Virus record (IMG/VR): IMGVR_UViG_3300050343_000281
Location: 1 to 64,000 of that record
DNA length: 64,000 nucleotides
Reading direction: 5' to 3' (one strand)
From: a virus
The notes below the pieces were generated by a model, which did no database searches, was not told where the DNA came from, and worked only from the letters and a program-made list of their open reading frames with translations. This document shows, one piece after another, positions 28,284-50,382 of the stretch. How positions within the stretch are numbered: position 1 is the stretch's first letter; each line of letters opens with the position of its first letter. The translations under genes and the position numbers were made by a program.

Positions 28284-28634
28284 ATGAGTGATTATAAAGA
28301 TGTTGAATACGAAATATCTATATTAAAGGATAAAATACTCCAATTAGAATCAGAAAATCAAAAAATGAAGCAGGTTATTTTAGATAACGAGCTTGAGAAT
28401 GAAATTGATGGCTTAGATGCTATATCTGAAGAAGAGTATATTTGTGTAAAGGGTATAGGACATTTAAAAAAACTATTTGAAAATGGAACATTTACTAAAG
28501 ACGATACTCAACAATTAGACTTACTTATAAAAAACCTTAGAATGATACGGGGACAAAGTAGTAAAAAAGCTAAAGGCAAAAGACTAAAAACAGAAGATGT
28601 AGCAGAGTTATTTAGTATAGTAAAAGGTAAATAA
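28284..28634 (+). CDS. Putative terminase small subunit
   Basis: Directly upstream of and overlapping TerL. Confidence 0.5.
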   Translation: MSDYKDVEYEISILKDKILQLESENQKMKQVILDNELENEIDGLDAISEEEYICVKGIGHLKKLFENGTFTKDDTQQLDLLIKNLRMIRGQSSKKAKGKRLKTEDVAELFSIVKGK

Positions 28635-30097
28635 TGTCTAAAGAAGAGCAAAAAAAACTTGCGGCTAAGCATAAACTATGGAGAATGGGAGAATTAAGCT
28701 GGAAGTTAAAAGGAAAACAAGAAGATATATATAAAAACATGAGAGAAACTACTCATGATGTATCTTGTATATTGGTATCTAGACGTTTTGGTAAATCTTT
28801 TACAAACTGTCTTTTAGCAGTTGAAACTTGTCTTAAAAATCCTAATGCTATTGTTAAATATGCTTGTCCTAAGCAAAGAATGGTTCAAACTATAATTAAA
28901 CCCATAATGCGTGAAATATTTAAAGATGCCCCAGAAGAGTTTAATTTATCTGATATGTGGAAAGCTAATGATAAAGTATACCAATTTCCTAACGGATCAG
29001 AAATACAAATAGCGGGAACTGATAATGGTAATGCCGAAAACCTACGTGGTGGTTATGCTCAGTTGCTCATATGTGACGAAGCTGGATTTATGGACGATTT
29101 AGACTACGTAGTAAATTCTATACTACTTCCTACCACAGATACAACAGATGGTAAGTTAATTCTTACATCTACTCCAAATTATAAAGATCCTCAACATGAA
29201 TTTCATACAGAATTTGTATTCCCTCTAGAAGCAGAAGAAAGGCTTATAAAATATACTTTATATGAATCTCCAATGGTAGATGAAGATAAAATACAAAAGA
29301 TTATATCAAGATACCCTGGTGGAGCAGAGAATCCTAAGTTTAGATGCGAGTATCTTTGTGAGATACCTAAATTAACAGAAAACACTGTAATACCTGAATA
29401 TGGCTATAATAAACATGAGATCGTAATAGATGATGTAGCCCTTCCAGATCACTTTGATGCCTACGTAGCAGCAGATATTGGATTTAGGGACTTAACCGTA
29501 GTTTTATTCGGTTACTATGACTTTATGAACGCTCAGTTAGTTATATTAGATGAACTAGTAATGAACGGTCCAGAAATGACTACTGACGAACTAGCTAAAA
29601 GAATTAATCAAAAAGAAGAACTCAGATTTCATTTAGATTCTATTAACATGCCAGTAGCTCCGTATTTACGTATTATGGACAATGATTTAAAGCTTATAAA
29701 TGACTTAGTTAGGCTACATAATATTCATTTTATAGCTACTAAAAAAGATAATAAAGAAGCTCAAATTAACCAAGTTAGGTTGTGGGTACATCAAGGTAAG
29801 ATTAAAATTCATGAAAGATGTAAACATCTAAGGTATCATTTAGAAAATGCACAATGGGATAAGCATAGAAAATCTTTTATACAATTAAAAGATACTCCTA
29901 ATGGAGAAATTAGAGGAGGCCACTGTGATGCTCTTGACGCTCTTATATATCTAGTTAGAAATGTTAATGAAGGTAGAAATCCTTTTCCAGAAGATTATAA
30001 TAAATTAAGAGGACCAGGAATATTTAAAAGTCTCCATAAACCTAAAGAATCAAAATTACAGGAACTTATGGATACTATCATGGGAAAGATAAAATAA
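28634..30097 (+). CDS. terL: Terminase large subunit
   Basis: Walker A SRRFGKS; Walker B LLICDEAG; STP; nuclease ADIGFRD and HCDALDA. Confidence 0.95.
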   Translation: MSKEEQKKLAAKHKLWRMGELSWKLKGKQEDIYKNMRETTHDVSCILVSRRFGKSFTNCLLAVETCLKNPNAIVKYACPKQRMVQTIIKPIMREIFKDAPEEFNLSDMWKANDKVYQFPNGSEIQIAGTDNGNAENLRGGYAQLLICDEAGFMDDLDYVVNSILLPTTDTTDGKLILTSTPNYKDPQHEFHTEFVFPLEAEERLIKYTLYESPMVDEDKIQKIISRYPGGAENPKFRCEYLCEIPKLTENTVIPEYGYNKHEIVIDDVALPDHFDAYVAADIGFRDLTVVLFGYYDFMNAQLVILDELVMNGPEMTTDELAKRINQKEELRFHLDSINMPVAPYLRIMDNDLKLINDLVRLHNIHFIATKKDNKEAQINQVRLWVHQGKIKIHERCKHLRYHLENAQWDKHRKSFIQLKDTPNGEIRGGHCDALDALIYLVRNVNEGRNPFPEDYNKLRGPGIFKSLHKPKESKLQELMDTIMGKIK

Positions 30098-30161: not shown

Positions 30162-32251
30162 ATGAAAGACAGCGTTTACTTTGCTGCAGATACATCTGAA
30201 AAAGCTGCCAGTTACTTACAACACAAAACCAAAGAATGGTTTCAAAACATAAGTGTAAACAACTATCTAAATAAAATCAAAAAATCATGGGCTGCTTATC
30301 ATGGAAATTACTACGCTAGTAGTCATGAAATAACCTTTGGCGGGGAACAAGGAGAGCTTGTAAACCTAGCCGTAAATCACTATTCCAACCTATGTACTCA
30401 CATGCTTAATATGGTAACTGGGTCTCGACCTAGTTTTCAATGTAGGGCAATTAACACTGATAGAAAATCTAAAATCCAAGCTGAACTGGGTAATGGACTA
30501 CTAGAATATTATATGCGTGAAAAAAGACTAGAGCGTAATATAAAAGCTGCTGTAGAATATGCTATTGTATTAGGATCTGGTTTTGTTAAAATGGAATGGA
30601 ACGCTACTAGAGGCGAAATAAGTGATTATTTAGATATAAGTCCAGAAGATATTGCATCTTTTGATGAAGAAGGTAATCCATTAGACGAAGATGGAAATAT
30701 GCTTTCTCCCACTCCAATATACGATGGTGACGTAGATTTTTACACACTATCTCCTTTCGATGTCGCATTTGATCCAACTAAAGAAACTCCAGATTTACAT
30801 GAATGGGTAGTTATTAGAACTTTTGTAAACAGGTACAATCTTAAAGAAAAGTATCCTGAGTATGCAGAAGAAATTATGAGGATTGGAACTAAAGACACTC
30901 AAAATTCAAACAATAGAATATCTCTAACATCTTTTAGTAAAACTGATGATATACCAGTATATGAATTATATCATAAAAGAACTGAAGCTTGTCCAGAAGG
31001 TAGATTTATGATGTATCTTACTAGCGATATAGTATTAGAAGATACTGACATGCCTTATAGAGACTTACCTATATTTAGAATAGCTCCTAGGAACGTACTA
31101 GGGACTCCTTTTGGTTATACATCTATGTGGGATATTTTACCACTCCAAGATGCTGTTAATAGTCTTTATTCTACAATAATGACTAATAATAACGCTTTTG
31201 GGGTGCAAAATATTCTCAACCCACAAGGAAACAATCTAAAAGTTAATCAACTAGAAGGTGGGCTAAATTTTATAGAATATAATCAAACAGTTGGGAAACC
31301 AGAACCACTACAACTTACATCTACTGCTCCAGAAACTTATAACTTTTTAGGAATGTTAGAAAAGACCATGGAAACAGTTTCTGGCATTAACTCAGTAGCT
31401 AGGGGTAATCCTGAATCTAGTTTAAGATCCGGTACTGCATTAGCACTAGTACAATCTCAAGCTTTACAATTTATGTCAGGACTACAACAATCTTATATTC
31501 AATTATTAGAAGATGTAGGAACTGGATTAATTAACATATTAAAAGATTTTGCAGATGCTCCAAGAATTGCAGCAATTGCAGGAATATCAAATACCAGTAA
31601 AATGGTAACATTTAAGTCTGAGGATTTAGAAGCAATAAATAGGGTTGTAGTTGATGTCGGTAACGCACTCGCACAAACACCTGCTGGTAGAGCGCAAATT
31701 GCAGAAAATCTTCTTCAAATGGGGTTAATTACTACTCCAGAAAGATACTTAGAAGTACTAAATACTGGTAACTTGAAAACAGCAACACAAGGAATTACAA
31801 GCGAATTAGATACTATAAATTCAGAAAATGAAGCATTATTAAAAGGACAGAGTGAAGTCATTGCTATTGCAACAGATCACCATGCCATGCACATTAGAGA
31901 ACACAGATCTGTACTCTCCGACCCTGCATTAAGACTTGACTCAGAATTAGTAGCCAGGACTCTTGCTCATATTAATGAACATATCAGACTCCTTCAAGAA
32001 ACAGATCCTAACTTACTATCCATCATCGGGAGCAGCCCCTTGCTCCTCCTGGTGGATCTCCTATTAATCCTCAACAACAAGGCGGTATGCCTGGTGCTCA
32101 AGGTGCTTCTGCTCCATTACAAGGAACTCCAATGACTCAAGCAATGCCTGGTATGCCTAGTCCTGCTCAAGCTCCTGATATATTAGGACAAGGGCAACCT
32201 CAAACTCCTGAAGAATTACTGGCAATGAATTTAGGTGGAGGTAACTTCTAA
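30162..32251 (+). CDS. Portal protein, apparent -1 frameshift near 32030
   Basis: Follows TerL; portal-like motifs (LPLQDAVN, METVSGINSVARG, SGTALALVQ); P/Q/G-rich tail in the -1 frame ends at a TAA overlapping the next ATG. Confidence 0.9.
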
Positions 32252-34463: not shown

Positions 34464-35747
34464 ATGGCTGATATTGGAAACGCTCTACCAGGGGTAGAAA
34501 ACGCTCAAAGTTCACTAAACGGATTATTTAAAGAAATTTACAACCAACTTAAGGACTTAGTACCTGCTAATACTAAAATGGCAGATATGATTCCTTTCGC
34601 ACCAGGAGACAAAGAACTAGGTGCTGCTTATAACGAGCCAGTAGTTCTAGGTTTAGAAGGTGGTGTAAGTTATGGTGGATCTGACGGAGAAGCTTTCGCA
34701 TTAAGAACTCCAAGTTCATTTACACTTAAAAACGCAAGAGTAAAGTCTGTAGAAATGGTATTAAGATCTGCAATTTCTACTGCTGTAGCTTCAAGATCTC
34801 AAAACTCTAACGGTGCTTTTGAAAGAGGTATTAAACTTCTTACTGGTAATATGATGAAATCTATGTACCACAGATTAGAAGTATCAATGCTTTACGGACA
34901 ACAAGGAATTGCTGTTGTAGAGTCTGTAGCTGGAACTGGTCCATCTGTAATTAAAGTAGAAGATCAAGAATGGGCTGCTGGTATTTGGGTTGGAACTACT
35001 AAGCACAAAATAGAAGTATTTAGTGCAGATTTAGCTACAAAAAGAGCTGAATTAACTATTTCAGGATATGATATTGGTGCTAAAACAGTAACTGTTATAG
35101 AAGATGCTTCTACATTACAAGCTACTGACGTAATCTTCTTTTCTGGTGCTGCTGAAGCAGGAGCTGTTCACAAGGATATGCTAGGTCTTCACAAAATCGC
35201 TTCAGAAAGAGTTTCATTATTTGAAATTTCTAACGCTACTGAGCCACTTTTCCAAGGTAACATCGTAGATGTTGGTGAACTTGCTAACGCTGCTGTACTT
35301 TCTTTTGCTAAAGTAGAAGAAGCTGTTGCAAAAGCTGTAGAAAAAGGTCTTGGAGAAGAGCAAATGACTGTTATAGTTAACGTAAACTCTTGGAATGACT
35401 TACTTACTGAGCAAACTGCTAAGAGAAGATTTACTTCTGACTACTCTTCTAAAATCAAAGAAGGTTCTAGAGCAATTGAATTTGAAGGACAAGCTGGTTC
35501 TATCAAAATTGTCCCTTCTACTTACGTAAAAGAAGGATACGCTTACGCTTTTTGTGAAAAAGATCTAATCAGAATCGGCTCTTCTAACATTACTTTTGAT
35601 CCAAAAGGATACGAAGGTGAATTTTTCAGACTACTAGATAACCACTCAGGTTACGAAATTAGAGCATACTCTGATCAAGCTCTTTTCTCTAGTAGACCAA
35701 GCTGTATTACTGTATTAAGGTACATTAAAAACGCTACACACGCATAA
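34464..35747 (+). CDS. Major capsid protein
   Basis: Position after scaffold, 427 aa, strongly biased codon usage, followed by a terminator. Confidence 0.88.
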   Translation: MADIGNALPGVENAQSSLNGLFKEIYNQLKDLVPANTKMADMIPFAPGDKELGAAYNEPVVLGLEGGVSYGGSDGEAFALRTPSSFTLKNARVKSVEMVLRSAISTAVASRSQNSNGAFERGIKLLTGNMMKSMYHRLEVSMLYGQQGIAVVESVAGTGPSVIKVEDQEWAAGIWVGTTKHKIEVFSADLATKRAELTISGYDIGAKTVTVIEDASTLQATDVIFFSGAAEAGAVHKDMLGLHKIASERVSLFEISNATEPLFQGNIVDVGELANAAVLSFAKVEEAVAKAVEKGLGEEQMTVIVNVNSWNDLLTEQTAKRRFTSDYSSKIKEGSRAIEFEGQAGSIKIVPSTYVKEGYAYAFCEKDLIRIGSSNITFDPKGYEGEFFRLLDNHSGYEIRAYSDQALFSSRPSCITVLRYIKNATHA

Positions 35748-39529: not shown

Positions 39530-40012
39530 ATGATTAATATCGACAATGTAGAACAAGCTAATAAATTCAAGGAAGAAGAATTTTCAGTACTTTTAATATG
39601 GGCAGAAGGATGTGAGTTTTGTGAAGAAGCGAAACCCATGTTCCAAGTCCTAGAAGATAAGTTCACTGACTTTAATTTTTATCAGTGGAAACTCGACAAG
39701 GATAGTTTCGAGTTTTATTCTCAGTATGAGGAAAAAGAACCTATTAGAATACCTTCTGTGGACGAAGATGGCGACCCCATTCTAGATGCTAAAGGTAATC
39801 AGATTTCACAACTGGCTACTGACGAAAATGGGGAAGTTGTAAAACGTGCTCCAATAGCAGTCCCTAAGCTTTACGTATTCCACGGAGAAGAGTCTACAGA
39901 GGAGAACCCTTATGGACTATTAGGTAAAGTAGACGGCTTCAATATGGAGCAATTAGAGGCTATTTTAGGGCAGATTAAGGGTATGCAGGAGGAAGAAGAT
40001 GGGGAAGCTTAA
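39530..40012 (+). CDS. Thioredoxin-like protein
   Basis: WAEGCEFC and cis-Pro loop IAVPKL, with an acidic insertion. Confidence 0.75.
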   Translation: MINIDNVEQANKFKEEEFSVLLIWAEGCEFCEEAKPMFQVLEDKFTDFNFYQWKLDKDSFEFYSQYEEKEPIRIPSVDEDGDPILDAKGNQISQLATDENGEVVKRAPIAVPKLYVFHGEESTEENPYGLLGKVDGFNMEQLEAILGQIKGMQEEEDGEA

Positions 40013-40238
40013 AAGCGGAGCTAAAAGTCTATTTACAATTGCTAAAAACGCTGCTAAAGGAGTGGACCAATCTGTTCCAGAAGAAGTGGCTAAAGAGAGA
40101 TTAGAAATCTGCAATAATTGTCCAAAAATGATAAAATTGACTGGTAATTGTGCGGAATGTGGTTGCTTTCTTTCAGCCAAGAGTAAATTTAGACAAGAAA
40201 AGTGTCCTTTAGGTAAATGGGACGAATGGAAGCCTTAA
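39999..40238 (+). CDS. Cys-rich small protein (DUF6171-like)
   Basis: RLEICNNCP..CAECGCFL.AK....EKCPLGKW. Confidence 0.75.
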   Translation: MGKLKSGAKSLFTIAKNAAKGVDQSVPEEVAKERLEICNNCPKMIKLTGNCAECGCFLSAKSKFRQEKCPLGKWDEWKP

Positions 40239-44905: not shown

Positions 44906-45018
44906 ATATACTATAGAACGCTCTAAAAATCCCCAATATATAGTATTTGTTATCAAGCTACGTATTAAAAATACATGATACGTAAATTAACGCTCGGTAT
45001 AGAACTATAGGGAATTAT

Positions 45019-45921
45019 ATGAAACTTGTAAATAATAAAAAAGTTTTAGTAGAAGATGTAGAAGGTACATCTCAATACGATGGACAACAAGTATTAAAAG
45101 ATGTCCACTCCCTTCCAGGGCATTATTTACGAACTAAAGACGCATTTTCTCTAGTTACAGCTCATTTTGACAGCTTTCAAGTTACTTACGATTCTAACAA
45201 TAATCCTACATTTATATCATATCTAGTTGGAATTACTCCACATTTAACAACTATAGGACTATCTGGAGATGTTAATGGATCTTTACAAGATACTGGATTT
45301 ATTATAAGTTCTTCTAAGAAGGAAAAAAGATTTGCTATTTACTATACAGTATCTGGACAAGGTAGTGCTCCTAGTATGGATGGAGTTACTAACATAGAAG
45401 TGCCTCTTGAATTAGATGATAGTGGGCAAATAGTAGCTCTTGCTACTAAATTAGCACTAGAAAAAACTTGTGAATTTGATATTAAAACTTTTAACTCTGT
45501 TTTAGAAATAAAAACTAAAGAGTTAGGAATTACAAATAATACAATACTTCTACCAAATTCTTCATTTTTGATACAAAATACAAGTGGAGAAGTAGAAAAA
45601 GTAGAAGAAGTTAATATAAGTTACTCAGACTCTGGATACCCTATTTGGCAGGGACAAGAGTTAAAAGAACATAAGTATAATATATATACTGCGAAATTTG
45701 AAACATTAGTTGCAGATTATACAGATGTTTATGGAAAGAAGTCTTTAAATGTAGTAAATTCTGATGAAGTAGTATGGGACGAAATAGTAACTTCTTTTCC
45801 AGATACGACATCTGAACTATACACGTATAGATTTGAACAAAATACTGTTCAAACTGTTTTAGTAACTTATGCTAACGGAAGTAGAAGTTCTATTTTGAGT
45901 GTAGTAAAAACAAGGGTATAA
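45019..45921 (+). CDS. Virion structural protein
   Basis: Contains a module similar to the repeats in the 2031-aa nozzle protein. Confidence 0.6.
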   Translation: MKLVNNKKVLVEDVEGTSQYDGQQVLKDVHSLPGHYLRTKDAFSLVTAHFDSFQVTYDSNNNPTFISYLVGITPHLTTIGLSGDVNGSLQDTGFIISSSKKEKRFAIYYTVSGQGSAPSMDGVTNIEVPLELDDSGQIVALATKLALEKTCEFDIKTFNSVLEIKTKELGITNNTILLPNSSFLIQNTSGEVEKVEEVNISYSDSGYPIWQGQELKEHKYNIYTAKFETLVADYTDVYGKKSLNVVNSDEVVWDEIVTSFPDTTSELYTYRFEQNTVQTVLVTYANGSRSSILSVVKTRV

Positions 45922-45922
45922 A

Positions 45923-46111
45923 ATGGCTTGGAGATTTGATCCACAAATTATAGATATAGTATTTGTTCAAAATCCAGATCAAATTCAGGCTAGCGGTTCT
46001 ATTGATTTTGGAGAAGACATTACTTCAGATATATCAATTGATACTGGAGATAGAACTAATGATACCTCCATACTAGATCAAGGCGAGAGAGTAATAGATG
46101 GCAATATTTAA
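45923..46111 (+). CDS. Small acidic structural protein
   Basis: MAWRFDP start; D-x-G repeats. Confidence 0.55.
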   Translation: MAWRFDPQIIDIVFVQNPDQIQASGSIDFGEDITSDISIDTGDRTNDTSILDQGERVIDGNI

Positions 46112-46475
46112 AGTACCTAGAATAACAACATCTCAAAGGCAGAATCTAATTCTTCAAATTGGAGAAATAGTTTATGATACTGACCAAGATATTTTTTATG
46201 GAGGAGATGATGAAACTTTAGGTGGATTTACTATAGGTAAAGGTGCTGGAGATGTCGTAGAACGTATAGAATTAGAAGAAGAAAATATATTTAACAAATT
46301 TGTAACACTAGGAGATACTCCTGTAATATCTCAAAACGTAACTGTTACTCCAGAAGGCGGAATAACTCAAGTTAACGGCATAGACTTTAGAGTAGTAGGA
46401 AATACTATTAGATGGGATGGCATGGGACTTGATGGAGTTTTAGATAAAGACGATTCTTTAATAGTACAATATTAA
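46098..46475 (+). CDS. Mtd_N / hyaluronidase-N-like fibre protein
   Basis: VPRITTSQR....GEIVYDTD..FYGGD. Confidence 0.7.
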   Translation: MAIFKVPRITTSQRQNLILQIGEIVYDTDQDIFYGGDDETLGGFTIGKGAGDVVERIELEEENIFNKFVTLGDTPVISQNVTVTPEGGITQVNGIDFRVVGNTIRWDGMGLDGVLDKDDSLIVQY

Positions 46476-46518
46476 GTTTTACAGCTAAACTGCTGTAATT
46501 AAACCAAAAGGAGTGTGT

Positions 46519-48045
46519 ATGAAAAAAAACACAAAAGACATCAAAGATTCTGTATTAAAAACCAGAATTAAACAGGCTAATAAAAGAGCCAAAGAAGTAG
46601 AAGCTTCTCAAGGGAAAAGTGATGATATAGTTAATGATAACTATGCAGCACTTTATTCTAAAGGACTAGCTCACGATTCTACTACTATGTTAGCAAGTGA
46701 AGCTGATATTAAAGAGATCCAAATTGCATTAGAAACTGGAGAACAATCTGATTTTGACGACATTAAACTTGTAGGAGCTAGAAAACAAGCTTCTCCTCAA
46801 GGTTCTTTATCTTCAGAAATTTCTGGTGGAGATCCAGAAGGATTTTCTATGAAAAAAGCTCCAGCTCTTGATTCAAGAGAAGCTGCTGCTGAAATGGCTG
46901 AAGTTTATCTTAAAAACATAATGAGAGACAAGCCATTTAAAGATTACGAAGATGGTTCTCAAGAAATTCAAGATGCTTTAGATATTCTTAATGCATTTGG
47001 AAGTGATTTTTTAGGACTAAAAGAAAACGGATCAGTAACTCCTAAAACTCTTTTTAGAGGAACATCCCCAGGATGCTCTGTTGGCGGATACGTATCTCAA
47101 CTGTTTCTTAATGAAATTGGAGTAGGTAATTTTTCTTATGAGCCAAAAGGACCAACTAAAACTGGAATCTATGGAAATACTAAAGCTAATTATTTACAAA
47201 TCCAAAACGGTAATGTACCAGTATCTCAAACTGTTGATTCAGTTAAAAAATGCATGTTTAACGGTAGACAACTTGGTTCTACAGTTCACATTGACCTAGT
47301 TTTTCAACATTTCTATGAAGCTGCTGCTATTCTTTTAAATGCAGGTGTAGGAGCTGGTGCTCAAGTTAAGGTTGGAGCTAAAGAAGGTAACTTTTTAGGC
47401 GGACCAGTATTACTTACTACTGCAATTGCTGAAGTATCTAGACACGCTCTAAGAGCAGCTTGGGTACAAAAGTGGAGAAAAAACCAAAGATTAAGACCAG
47501 AAGCTATGGCTGCAAGAGTTGTTGCTGAAAAAGCTGGAGATATTCCTTCTGGAACAGTACATGCTGATTTAATGTCAAGTGCTATTGTAGGAGCGGTTGA
47601 AGCTTTTAACGTAGCTAACAGTGGAGATAATGCAGCATTTTTACCTCTTCAGTATGCTGAAGGTAGTCCGACGCATCCTGCATATCCTGCTGGACACGCT
47701 ACAATTTCAGGAGCTTGTGCTACTATTCTTAAGATAATGTTTGCTGATGCAAATTGGTCGACTACTGGTCTTTCTGAAGTTCAAGGTAATAGTGATGGGT
47801 CTGTTGTAGAAGCTTATTCTGGCGCAGATGCTGGACAAATTACTATCCATGGAGAAATTGACAAATTAGCACATAACGTAGCTTTAGGAAGAGACTATGC
47901 TGGAGTGCATTACAGAAGTGACTCTGAATTAGCTCTTGGAGAAAAAGTAGCTATTCAATTTTACAAGGATCAAAAAGCACTTTTCAACGAAGAAGTTGAG
48001 GAAGTTACTTTTATTGGATTTGATGGTAATCCAATTACTGTATAA
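46519..48045 (+). CDS. Vanadium-dependent haloperoxidase (PAP2 superfamily)
   Basis: KWRKNQRLRPE; EGSPTHPAYPAGHATISGAC; GRDYAGVHYRSD; ATG 46519 after AGGAG. Confidence 0.9.
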   Translation: MKKNTKDIKDSVLKTRIKQANKRAKEVEASQGKSDDIVNDNYAALYSKGLAHDSTTMLASEADIKEIQIALETGEQSDFDDIKLVGARKQASPQGSLSSEISGGDPEGFSMKKAPALDSREAAAEMAEVYLKNIMRDKPFKDYEDGSQEIQDALDILNAFGSDFLGLKENGSVTPKTLFRGTSPGCSVGGYVSQLFLNEIGVGNFSYEPKGPTKTGIYGNTKANYLQIQNGNVPVSQTVDSVKKCMFNGRQLGSTVHIDLVFQHFYEAAAILLNAGVGAGAQVKVGAKEGNFLGGPVLLTTAIAEVSRHALRAAWVQKWRKNQRLRPEAMAARVVAEKAGDIPSGTVHADLMSSAIVGAVEAFNVANSGDNAAFLPLQYAEGSPTHPAYPAGHATISGACATILKIMFADANWSTTGLSEVQGNSDGSVVEAYSGADAGQITIHGEIDKLAHNVALGRDYAGVHYRSDSELALGEKVAIQFYKDQKALFNEEVEEVTFIGFDGNPITV

Positions 48046-48098
48046 TTAAAAAATAAAAAAAGCAAAGTTGCTTCCTATTTTAACAAAAGGAGAGCCAC

Positions 48099-50342
48099 AT
48101 GGCACAACAATTAAAGAAGAAGTTTATTGCCGACAACGCAGTTGACGGTGATAAAATCAAACTACTTAAAGATCAGTCTTTAGAAATTGAAAATCAAGCT
48201 GGTCAAGTAATTAGCTTGTTACAATTAAATGCTTCTGATGAAGTTCTTATTAAAGGCGAAGCTGCTGCTACAAGAGCTTACGTTGATCAAGAAGTTAGTG
48301 CAGAAGAGACTAGAGCAATGGCTGCTGAAAGTGTTTTACAGGGCGAAATTAATGCAGAAGAAGTAGCTAGAATTGCTGCAGACTCTGCTTTACAAGATGC
48401 TGTAGATGCTGAAGTAGCTGCAAGAATTGCTGCTGACGATGTTTTAGATACTGCAATTAGTGCAGAGCAATCTAGAGCACAAGGCGAAGAAGCAAGAATT
48501 GAAGGTAAAGTAGATCAAGAAGTAATTGATAGAGCTGCTGCTGATACCACATTACAAGGTAATATAGATGCAGAAGAATCTAGAGCACTTGCTCAAGAAG
48601 CTGCTATCAGAGGCGAATTTGCTGCTGCTGATACTGCACTACATACTACTATTTCTGCAGAAATTGATGCAGATGTTTTAGTAGAAACTCAAAGAGCACA
48701 AGGTGAAGAGTCTAGAATTGAAGGTATAGTAGATCAAGAGGTTCTTGATAGAGCTGCTGCTGATACTACATTACAAAGTGCAATTGATACTGAAAAAAGT
48801 AGAATTGATGCAATTTTATCAGCTTCTACTGCAAATGCGGACAGTTTCAAAGAAATTGTTGACTTAATCAATTCAGTTGATACTGCAAACGATGACGCTT
48901 TTGCTGCCTATGTACTATCTAATAACGCTGCATTAGCTGCTGAAGTATCAGCTAGAGGGACACTAGAAGGCGAATTTGATGCTTACGTAATTTCTAACGA
49001 TGCTGCATTAGCACAAGAAGTTAGTGATAGAGCTGCTGACGTAAATGCAGAAGAAACCAGAGCACTAGCTGCTGAAGGTGTTTTACAAGGTAATATTGAT
49101 TCAGAAGCTGCTTCTAGAGCTGCTGAAGATCTATTAATGTTAAAATTAGATGGGTCTAGACCAATGGGGGCTGCTTTAGCTATGGGATCTTTTAAGATTT
49201 CAGGAATGGCAGACGGTTCTGTTGCTTCAGATGCTATTAATAAAGGTCAATTAGATGCTGCAATCGCTGGAGCTGCTTCAGACGTAACAGCTTTAGAAAA
49301 TGAGTTAACTCAAGAAATTTCTGACAGAGAAGCTGGCGACGCTGCTATAAAAGGTGTTCTGGGAGGAATGGAAGCTTATACTACTATTAAAGCTCTAAGT
49401 GACGCTGTAGAAGCTGAAGAGTCTGCTAGAGGTACTTTAGAAGGCGAGTTCGATGCTTATGTTATATCTAACGATGCTGCATTAGCACAAGAAGTTTCTG
49501 ATAGAAGTGCATTAGAAGGGGAGTTTGACGCTTATAAAATCTCTAATGATGCGGCTTTAGCTGCTGAAGTATCAGCTAGAGAAACTTTAGAAGGTGAGCA
49601 TGACGCTTATGTTATCTCAAATAATGCTGCATTAGCACAAGAAGTTTCAGCCAGAGGCTCTGCTGACAATACGCTACAAAGTAACATTGATGCTGAAGCA
49701 TCAGCTAGAATTGCTGCAGACGTTGTTTTACAAAGTGCAATTGACACTGAAAAAGGTAGAATTGATACTATCTTAGATATGTCTACTGCAGATGCGGACA
49801 GTTTCAAAGAAATTGTTGACTTAATCAATAGCGTAGATACTGAAAATGATAATTTATTTTCTGGACATGTAACAACTTATAACGCTTATGTTACTGCAAA
49901 CGACGCTAGAGTTTTAGCTGTAGAAGGCGAAGTTGATACTCTTCAGTCTGAAATGAGTGCTGTAGAAGGTAGACTTGATATAGTTGAGCCAAAAGTTTCT
50001 ACTCTAGAAATGGAAATGGACGCTGTAGAAAACAGAGCTACTACTTTAGAAGGTGAAATGGACTCTGCTGAAGGAAGATTAGACGCTATTGAAGCTGAAG
50101 TTTTCCATAAAGAGCAGTTTGTTCTTACTCAAATTCAAATAGACGCTCAAAAAGTAGTTCTTTCTAATGCTCCACAAGCTAACTCTGTAGTAGCTTTTGC
50201 GGGTAGACTAGCTCTTCACGAAGGTGCTGCTCAAGATTACGAAATGTCTGGTTCTGATTTTCAATTCAGAGGAGACATTGCTACAGCCGGAGTTTCTGCT
50301 CTTGTAGCTGGAGATGTTATTACTATAGTTTACTACAAGTAA
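48099..50342 (+). CDS. Long coiled-coil fibre protein
   Basis: Repeated E.RA.AAD/E units; duplicated ADSFKEIVDLINSVDT. Confidence 0.75.
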   Translation: MAQQLKKKFIADNAVDGDKIKLLKDQSLEIENQAGQVISLLQLNASDEVLIKGEAAATRAYVDQEVSAEETRAMAAESVLQGEINAEEVARIAADSALQDAVDAEVAARIAADDVLDTAISAEQSRAQGEEARIEGKVDQEVIDRAAADTTLQGNIDAEESRALAQEAAIRGEFAAADTALHTTISAEIDADVLVETQRAQGEESRIEGIVDQEVLDRAAADTTLQSAIDTEKSRIDAILSASTANADSFKEIVDLINSVDTANDDAFAAYVLSNNAALAAEVSARGTLEGEFDAYVISNDAALAQEVSDRAADVNAEETRALAAEGVLQGNIDSEAASRAAEDLLMLKLDGSRPMGAALAMGSFKISGMADGSVASDAINKGQLDAAIAGAASDVTALENELTQEISDREAGDAAIKGVLGGMEAYTTIKALSDAVEAEESARGTLEGEFDAYVISNDAALAQEVSDRSALEGEFDAYKISNDAALAAEVSARETLEGEHDAYVISNNAALAQEVSARGSADNTLQSNIDAEASARIAADVVLQSAIDTEKGRIDTILDMSTADADSFKEIVDLINSVDTENDNLFSGHVTTYNAYVTANDARVLAVEGEVDTLQSEMSAVEGRLDIVEPKVSTLEMEMDAVENRATTLEGEMDSAEGRLDAIEAEVFHKEQFVLTQIQIDAQKVVLSNAPQANSVVAFAGRLALHEGAAQDYEMSGSDFQFRGDIATAGVSALVAGDVITIVYYK

Positions 50343-50359
50343 TAGATATTAATTAAATT

Positions 50360-50382
50360 GGAGGGCTTTGCCCTCCTCTTTA
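50360..50382 (+). terminator. Rho-independent terminator
   Basis: GGAGGGC-TTT-GCCCTCC followed by TCTTT. Confidence 0.75.

Follow-up and report, generated by a model that had tools for sequence, protein, structure and literature searches.

What a vanadium haloperoxidase (VHPO) gene is doing in a tailed phage is the question raised by a single locus in the first 64 kb (64,000 nucleotides, hereafter the window) of the 74.4-kb IMG/VR record IMGVR_UViG_3300050343_000281, which CheckV rates as 95% complete. VHPOs are usually associated with seaweeds, fungi, cyanobacteria, and a few bacteria, and they drive the oceanic production of hypobromous acid (HOBr), hypoiodous acid (HOI), and volatile halocarbons; the enzyme family is well known, its viral context is not. 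The joint reading that best fits the results described below, and to which we would give about an even chance, is that the gene encodes an intact, soluble enzyme of the vanadium bromoperoxidase (VBPO) type, carried as dispensable late cargo and acting after lysis, not as a part of the virion. The gene and its ribosome-binding site are as follows.

46519..48045, + strand: VHPO gene, an open reading frame (ORF) with an ATG start, encoding a 508-aa signal-less homologue of the VBPO-type vanadium haloperoxidases
46508..46513, + strand: Shine-Dalgarno sequence AAGGAG, read from the sequence, 5 nt 5' of the ATG

The homology of the encoded protein to the VBPOs is, by every sequence comparison made, far beyond chance. 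A phmmer search of all PDB sequences returned VBPOs only (ten sequences, E 2e-46 to 8e-40), headed by the Ascophyllum nodosum enzyme (AnVBPO; 1QI9, E 2.3e-46, residues 40–493 against chain 48–517), with the Corallina and Acaryochloris enzymes matching at E 1e-44 to 1e-46, and an exhaustive HMMER pass collected 2,435 family clusters at 50% identity. The AlphaFold2 model, built on 18 homologues (pLDDT 85.7, pTM 0.90), has the all-helical two-bundle fold of VBPOs and was matched by Foldseek to 1QI9, 1QHB, 8VH0, and 5LPC with a probability of 1.00 and TM scores of 0.83–0.87, bacterial chloroperoxidase/NapH-type and fungal vanadium chloroperoxidase (VCPO) structures appearing only at E > 0.01. A preceding interpretation of the bare sequence (the sequence-only reading) had described the motifs as resembling those of algal and cyanobacterial VBPOs and had called for profile searches and a phylogeny; both the PDB matches and the fold bear that description out, placing the protein with VBPOs and not with VCPOs or PAP2 proteins. 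AnVBPO I aligns with the phage protein over the full length (TMq 0.87, TMt 0.80), and the counterparts of its K341, R349, H411, G417, H418, R480, H486, and W338 are all present; the phage protein differs from it in being only ~27% identical, ~50 aa shorter, virus-encoded, and devoid of secretory targeting, and in having Ala in place of Ser416. The enzymes of Acaryochloris marina (5LPC, 8Q20-22) and Corallina (1QHB, 1UP8, 7QVW, 8VH0) are alike in the catalytic C-terminal half (E 1e-44 to 1e-46, TM 0.83–0.86); they differ in being 90–160 aa longer and in having Arg at the position of phage W315, a residue that is Trp in AnVBPO and in the Corallina R396W mutant chain 7QVW. The active-site segments, numbered by alignment to AnVBPO, are located as follows.

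47284..47301, + strand: VHIDLV segment with invariant H257 and D259, the latter aligning with a conserved VBPO Asp
47461-47463, + strand: W315, just 5' of motif 1, counterpart of the halide-pocket Trp338
47470..47499, + strand: motif 1, KWRKNQRLRP (aa 318–327), with vanadate-binding K318 and R326 corresponding to K341 and R349
47674..47697, + strand: motif 2, HPAYPAGH (aa 386–393), with H386 corresponding to His411, A391 at the position of Ser416, G392 corresponding to G417, and catalytic H393 to His418
47890..47910, + strand: motif 3, RDYAGVH (aa 458–464), with R458 corresponding to Arg480 and vanadium-ligating H464 to His486

The intact protein of ~508 aa with three vanadate motifs, as originally described, thus aligns residue for residue with 1QI9. 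The vanadate cage is complete, H464, K318, R326, R458, and G392 being aligned with H486, K341, R349, R480, and G417 of AnVBPO, and the second-sphere residues are those of VBPOs, namely H386 (where VCPO has Phe), W315, and D259, whose aligned residue in AnVBPO we take to be Asp278; the roles ascribed to these three in halide and peroxide chemistry are those established for VBPOs. Among 133 viral-clade and 35 cellular sequences, D259, W315, K318, R326, P327, H386, H393, and R458 are invariant, and the conservation of A391, G392, and H464 is at least 99%. The [S/A]-G-H motif is present as A391-G392-H393, without the Ser hydroxyl. This replacement, singled out in the sequence-only reading as a departure from the usual Ser, is real but not peculiar to this copy: because Ala is the norm of the subfamily (167 of 168 sequences) and is also found in the A-G-H motif of the solved A. 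marina VBPO (5LPC, 'YGAGHAT'), it provides no argument against activity. We consider it probable, on the strength of the alignments and the model, that the protein is a functional VHPO.

The same residues also bear on the possibility that the protein serves in vivo as a phosphatase or phosphotransferase, its PAP2-type active site being occupied by phosphate instead of vanadate. Active-site motifs of this kind are common to VHPOs and PAP2 acid phosphatases, apo-VHPOs have phosphatase activity (cf. PDB 3BB0), the Pfam PAP2 family gives a weak match (E 0.013), and a protein without a signal would reside in a phosphate-rich cytoplasm. Nevertheless, this function appears very improbable, inasmuch as the protein has, over its entire 508 aa, the two-bundle architecture of VBPOs and not the compact fold of PAP2 proteins, and the VBPO-specific W315, H386, and D259 are invariant. 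An annotation listed for the protein in a precomputed database is PF22778, which our local Pfam scan did not return.

The gene is an authentic and maintained part of the phage genome. Contig X3, from a run of another study, spans positions 45000–48062, from the upstream genes into the VHPO gene, with 7 differences, and contig X4, likewise from a run of another study, spans 46094–48864, from the 125-aa gene through the VHPO gene and into the fibre gene; because both junctions are bridged by these independent contigs, the assembly is not chimeric, a point on which the earlier interpretation had made its own validity depend. An assembly chimera or cellular contamination, which is countered as well by the late-gene codon usage and by the related contig L116, where the VHPO gene follows an orthologue of the same 125-aa gene, has a practically negligible probability. 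The GC content at third codon positions (GC3) is 0.143 and the codon usage is that of the late genes of the phage; in the late-versus-early codon log-likelihood, the VHPO gene (+0.052 per codon) is exceeded only by the gene for the major capsid protein (+0.061), so that the capsid-like codon bias noticed previously is reproduced in numbers. Comparison with eight close relatives gave dN/dS of 0.07–0.18, and the gene is under purifying selection. An alternative in-frame start, GTG at 46513, would lengthen the protein to 510 aa. The N-terminus is rich in charged residues, and no hydrophobic segment was found in the protein (Kyte-Doolittle(19) maximum 1.23), which therefore has no signal peptide, transmembrane segment, or membrane anchor, in agreement with the signal-less protein initially proposed.

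The lack of a signal is a property of a whole viral group. In a search of 5.8 billion proteins, homologues of ~510 aa form a continuum from 93% down to ~44% identity to the phage VHPO; about five of the clusters from the HMMER pass make up this viral continuum, followed by a drop to 42% identity or less. A scan of GTDB (one genome per species, ~185,000 prokaryote species, with patterns common to all clade members) yielded 377 relatives, none more than 41% identical. Members of the clade were found on 15 IMG/VR and 20 metagenome contigs, at 33–84% identity. A maximum-likelihood tree unites the window protein with 12 IMG/VR sequences and every one of the 21 metagenome sequences sampled in a single clade (SH-aLRT 99, stem 0.59), and 35 of 35 cellular sequences lie on the other side of the long branch; the tree is unrooted and was computed with the algal and cyanobacterial VBPO sequences left out, so that the term 'clade' assumes a root outside the viral group. 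The nearest cellular relatives, VBPO-like proteins of Verrucomicrobiota, Myxococcota, Hyphomonadaceae, Acidobacteriota, and others (L017–L096; 35–41% identical), have the same mature-domain length and the identical active-site set including Ala391. They differ from the phage proteins, apart from their position beyond the well-supported branch, in being exported: a twin-arginine (Tat) signal, RRxFL followed by a hydrophobic stretch, occurs in 31 of the 35 cellular relatives but in none of 36 viral-clade proteins, none of which has any N-terminal extension either. As far as the sequences sampled indicate, the clade is large, confined to phage and metagenome contigs, and spread over many phage lineages. 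The description of the gene as very unusual phage cargo consequently needs to be divided: neither a protein nor a DNA match was found in 50,697 GenBank phage records, but a large virus-only clade exists and the gene is not rare in nature. At the margins of the group, a homologue 37% identical, on a 618,736-bp 'viral' IMG/VR contig (L013), is sister to the phage clade, and one 33% identical, from a giant-virus metagenome-assembled genome (L015, GVMAG), is on a long separate branch. On contig L101, positions 138–1670, the VHPO gene is split into ORFs of 122 and 383 aa, a frameshifted pseudogene or an assembly error.

The time of expression is suggested by a motif. The 11-mer TAACAACTATA occurs in the window in 12 exact copies, and with at most one mismatch in 17 against 5.0 ± 2.4 expected; most of the + strand copies lie ~30–200 nt 5' of structural genes, and one lies inside ORF 45019–45921, upstream of the VHPO gene.

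45245..45255, + strand: exact late motif TAACAACTATA inside ORF 45019–45921, probable promoter of the VHPO unit
50360..50376, + strand: strong intrinsic-terminator-like hairpin after the fibre gene, closing the unit

The intragenic copy at 45245 is kept in G002, a related complete phage genome (at +223 of the orthologous ORF, versus +226 in the window), and is probably a real internal promoter. With the motif at 45245 and the next strong terminator at 50360–50376, the probable transcription unit comprises a 62-aa gene, the 125-aa gene, the VHPO gene, and the fibre gene. In the relatives L097 and L116, whose VHPOs are 84% and 78% identical, an exact extended motif, TTTTTAACAACTATATAAC, is located 29–30 nt before the VHPO start codon itself. 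The VHPO gene is, as these signals and the codon usage indicate, late-expressed. To what was known of this enzyme family, the present analysis adds the Tat-signal contrast, this late-motif wiring in relatives, and a clean presence/absence pair formed by the window genome and G002.

G002 is 78.8 kb long, has terminal repeats, is 100% complete, and encodes a capsid protein 86% identical to that of the window. A search for the VHPO gene in this complete genome found it absent, the same search having recovered the gene in G000. The gene order is otherwise collinear, with genes of 117, 1048, 104, 299, 61, and 125 aa followed by the coiled-coil fibre and on to a 323-aa protein, and the 125-aa and fibre genes are 45 nt apart, exactly at the position that the VHPO gene occupies in the window. 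Since a syntenic complete genome does without the gene, VHPO is dispensable for building the virion. In the window, the gene is enclosed by two spacers.

46476..46518, + strand: upstream spacer, with a 7-bp hairpin at 46479–46498
48046..48098, + strand: downstream spacer, located between VHPO and the fibre gene, with a degenerate hairpin followed by TTTTAAC and GGAG

The two are similar to each other and to the single 45-nt spacer of G002, all three having a short hairpin, TTTAAC, and GGAG; in relatives, the hairpin 3' of the VHPO gene is fuller, GGAAGCAATTTTGCTTCC. The spacers look like the boundary of a cassette and may be recombination boundaries.

The surroundings of the gene in other viruses are equally those of mobile cargo; the contexts compared came from IMG/VR, JGI metagenome, and GTDB loci. 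Among 15 viral loci, VHPO is the sole common protein family, and no conserved partner gene was found across their backbones, which are diverse (T4-like/jumbo, PolIII-alpha, podovirus-like). Three contigs (L016, L012, L011) with a T4-type capsid protein ~70% identical to those of jumbo myoviruses have the VHPO gene between head and tail-fibre genes, adjoining a GATase-like gene; three others (L003, L110, L106), related to jumbo phages of 225–460 kb, have it surrounded by genes for RNA ligase, endonuclease, helicase, and glycosyltransferase-like proteins; in L006 it is flanked by a PolIII-alpha gene and GroEL, and in L009 and L010 the gene preceding it is IMPDH-like. L005 and the window are of one general phage type; the VHPO of L005 is 73% identical and its portal 23% identical, and its large terminase (TerL) and capsid protein gave no BLAST match to those of the window; the disparity between 73% and 23% indicates that VHPO has moved between phage lineages. 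The gene thus behaves as a single-gene cargo element ('moron'), present or absent as one gene in syntenic genomes and carried on unrelated backbones without conserved partners, and is very probably non-structural late cargo.

The main competing view of its location is that the enzyme is associated with the virion, acting on the appendages through HOBr as a chemical 'depolymerase', a destroyer of quorum signals, or an agent of fibre or capsid crosslinking or halogenation. The view agrees with the fibre- or appendage-like gene that precedes the VHPO gene on the same strand, both in the window and wherever the context could be read in the sub-clade at 70% identity or more (L116, L002, L098, L102, L099–101, L115, L005), with the predicted co-transcription with fibre genes, with the capsid-like codon usage, and with the absence of a signal, which is shared by all virion proteins. 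However, the complete genome G002 has the same virion module and cleanly lacks the VHPO gene; no additional anchor or adaptor domain was found in the protein, which aligns end to end with the cellular enzymes and is not extended at either terminus by a docking domain; and longer fused forms were not found in the viral clade, only three cellular-type proteins of that kind being found (weak evidence). The settings among replication and metabolic genes in other phages are also at variance with a structural role, and fibre clusters are general hot-spots for cargo insertion. We therefore regard association with the virion as distinctly unlikely. A proposal built on it, that marine tailed phages have domesticated a bromoperoxidase as a virus-only lineage devoid of a signal, here functionally tied to the appendages as an oxidant maker on the fibres and making lysis a direct source of reactive bromine and iodine, we likewise consider improbable. 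From the original suggestion of a late, possibly virion-associated enzyme, the late part stands, in that the gene belongs to a late appendage-gene unit, and the link to the virion is weakened by G002, by the missing anchor domain, and by the varied context; the synteny that was to be checked in related phages is found as the fibre-like upstream gene within the sub-clade and, in G002, as collinear flanking genes with the VHPO gene itself absent, the settings in other phages being varied.

Referring to the mechanism of the enzyme family, vanadate would form a covalent bond with H464 inside a cage of K318, R326, R458, and the A391–G392 backbone, with H393 serving as the acid-base residue. H2O2 would then convert the bound vanadate to peroxo-vanadate, which would oxidize Br− or I− (possibly Cl−) in the pocket of W315 and H386, the product being HOBr or HOI. 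As a single-gene cassette, VHPO would be transcribed with the late genes at capsid-like codon optimality, build up late in the cytoplasm, and be released with the progeny; we propose that lysis replaces export, because the cellular sisters are exported and the phage copies would be made just before lysis. The released enzyme would work in seawater, which contains bromide, vanadate, and H2O2, in the neighborhood of the burst, where it would use up peroxide and generate hypohalous acid. Among algae there is a precedent for the destruction of quorum signals by haloperoxidases (Syrpas et al. 2014, PMC3917277, as cited in PMC11794697), and quinolone signals are halogenated by bacterial VHPOs (PMC11312541). 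What we infer by analogy from these comparisons is that the enzyme is loaded with vanadate and oxidizes halide, where it acts, and how the phage benefits; extracellular action after lysis in particular is put forward tentatively, at somewhat below an even chance.

The absence of an export signal from all 36 viral-clade proteins is compatible as well with action before lysis, that is, with an iron- and haem-free, halide-assisted catalase or peroxidase that would scavenge intracellular peroxide and guard replication and assembly from H2O2. Late and high expression, as suggested by the late motifs and codon usage, would suit such a role, and so would the adjoining IMPDH-like, GATase-like, and GroEL genes in other phages, reminiscent of classical auxiliary metabolic genes, and a thioredoxin-like CxxC protein in the same late arm of the window. 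Yet the cellular relatives, 31 of 35 of which have Tat signals, keep such chemistry out of the cytoplasm, which suggests that the production of hypohalous acids is harmful inside; moreover, vanadate in the cytoplasm generally has to compete with phosphate and is prone to reduction. An intracellular scavenger seems to us unlikely on balance, although it deserves serious consideration.

Several observations weigh against the preferred reading of a functional VBPO-type enzyme, carried as non-structural late cargo and acting outside the cell after lysis. The closest characterized enzymes lie outside both the viral clade and the nearest cellular clade and are only ~25–30% identical. The score for Pfam PAP2 (PF01569) is 15.7 bits, below the cut-off of 27.2, and NCBIfam and PHROGs gave no match or model for the protein. 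The contigs of two metatranscriptome libraries of one study that cover the VHPO and fibre genes of a ~90% identical relative are a weak hint of transcription, because DNA carry-over is possible. The recurrence of a fibre-like gene upstream throughout the sub-clade must also be counted here. Finally, H2O2 in ambient seawater is far below the typical Km of VBPOs, which renders the benefit of extracellular action uncertain.

The phage VHPO is worth comparing with the other halogenation-related proteins encoded by viruses. The sole published virus-encoded halogenating enzyme that we found is VirX1, a cyanophage flavin-dependent halogenase (Gkotsi et al. 2019, as cited in PMC11312541). It belongs to an unrelated class, being FAD-dependent and substrate-specific, whereas the phage VHPO is, by its sequence, of the vanadate type and would release a diffusible oxidant. 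The 'PAP2 superfamily' proteins of giant viruses (Sylvanvirus A0A3G5AI90, Hokovirus, Yasminevirus) resemble it in their VBPO-like fold (E 1e-32 to 3e-22; TMq up to 0.91), which no other entry of the viral structure library BFVD was found to have; they differ in belonging to eukaryote-infecting Nucleocytoviricota, in being 24–28% identical, and in lying outside the phage clade. Full-text literature searches yielded no publication dealing with a VHPO of a phage or other virus. If a large, selectively maintained viral branch has indeed shed its export signal and spread over many phage lineages, infection by viruses could itself contribute to halogen and peroxide chemistry in the sea, and the making of a diffusible oxidant would be a phage auxiliary function not described in the literature searched. 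The window genome and G002 together constitute a natural experiment on the use of VHPO to the phage.

The source of the gene is a genuine tailed phage, with the packaging and head genes and the immediate neighbors of VHPO listed below and a family-A DNA polymerase on the opposite arm of the window.

28634-30097: large terminase
30162-32135: portal of the P22/SU10 type
34464-35747: major head protein
46098..46475, + strand: 125-aa small appendage-like protein, upstream neighbor of VHPO, with orthologues 65.6% identical in G002 and 60% identical in L116
48099..50342, + strand: 747-aa coiled-coil fibre, downstream neighbor of VHPO, with matches to YadA_stalk and to PHROG virion structural families

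The nearest cultured relative is distant, a Silvanigrella aquatica phage with 32% identity in TerL and 26% in the capsid protein; it gives a weak hint at a possible host of the Oligoflexia/Bdellovibrionota type; no tRNA genes were found in the 64-kb window. The position between two fibre genes, as first described, is retained on the downstream side, where the 747-aa protein also matches the tail-needle coiled coil of P22 gp26 (E 1.5e-7); the 'Mtd_N-type' identity of the upstream neighbor is unconfirmed, the 125-aa protein having no Pfam, NCBIfam, or PDB match even at E 10, and BLAST found no link between its C-terminus and that of the 747-aa fibre at E 0.1. Directly 3' of the VHPO gene, contigs L099, L100, and L101 have long opposite-strand tandem arrays of alternating paralogous ORFs of ~74 and ~102 aa. 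The same arm as VHPO contains other redox-related cargo (39530–40238), namely a thioredoxin-like protein with a WxxGCxxC motif (39530–40012) and a small Cys-rich protein (CxxC ... CxxC; 39999–40238) whose gene overlaps the end of the former. Within the fibre gene, at 48348–49500, contigs of other samples show joints of 381–675 nt at which the alignment 'goes back' or 'skips'; these fit internal repeats (EGEFDAYVISNDAALAQEVS units) whose number varies between strains, the orthologue in G002 being 913 aa long versus 747 aa in the window.

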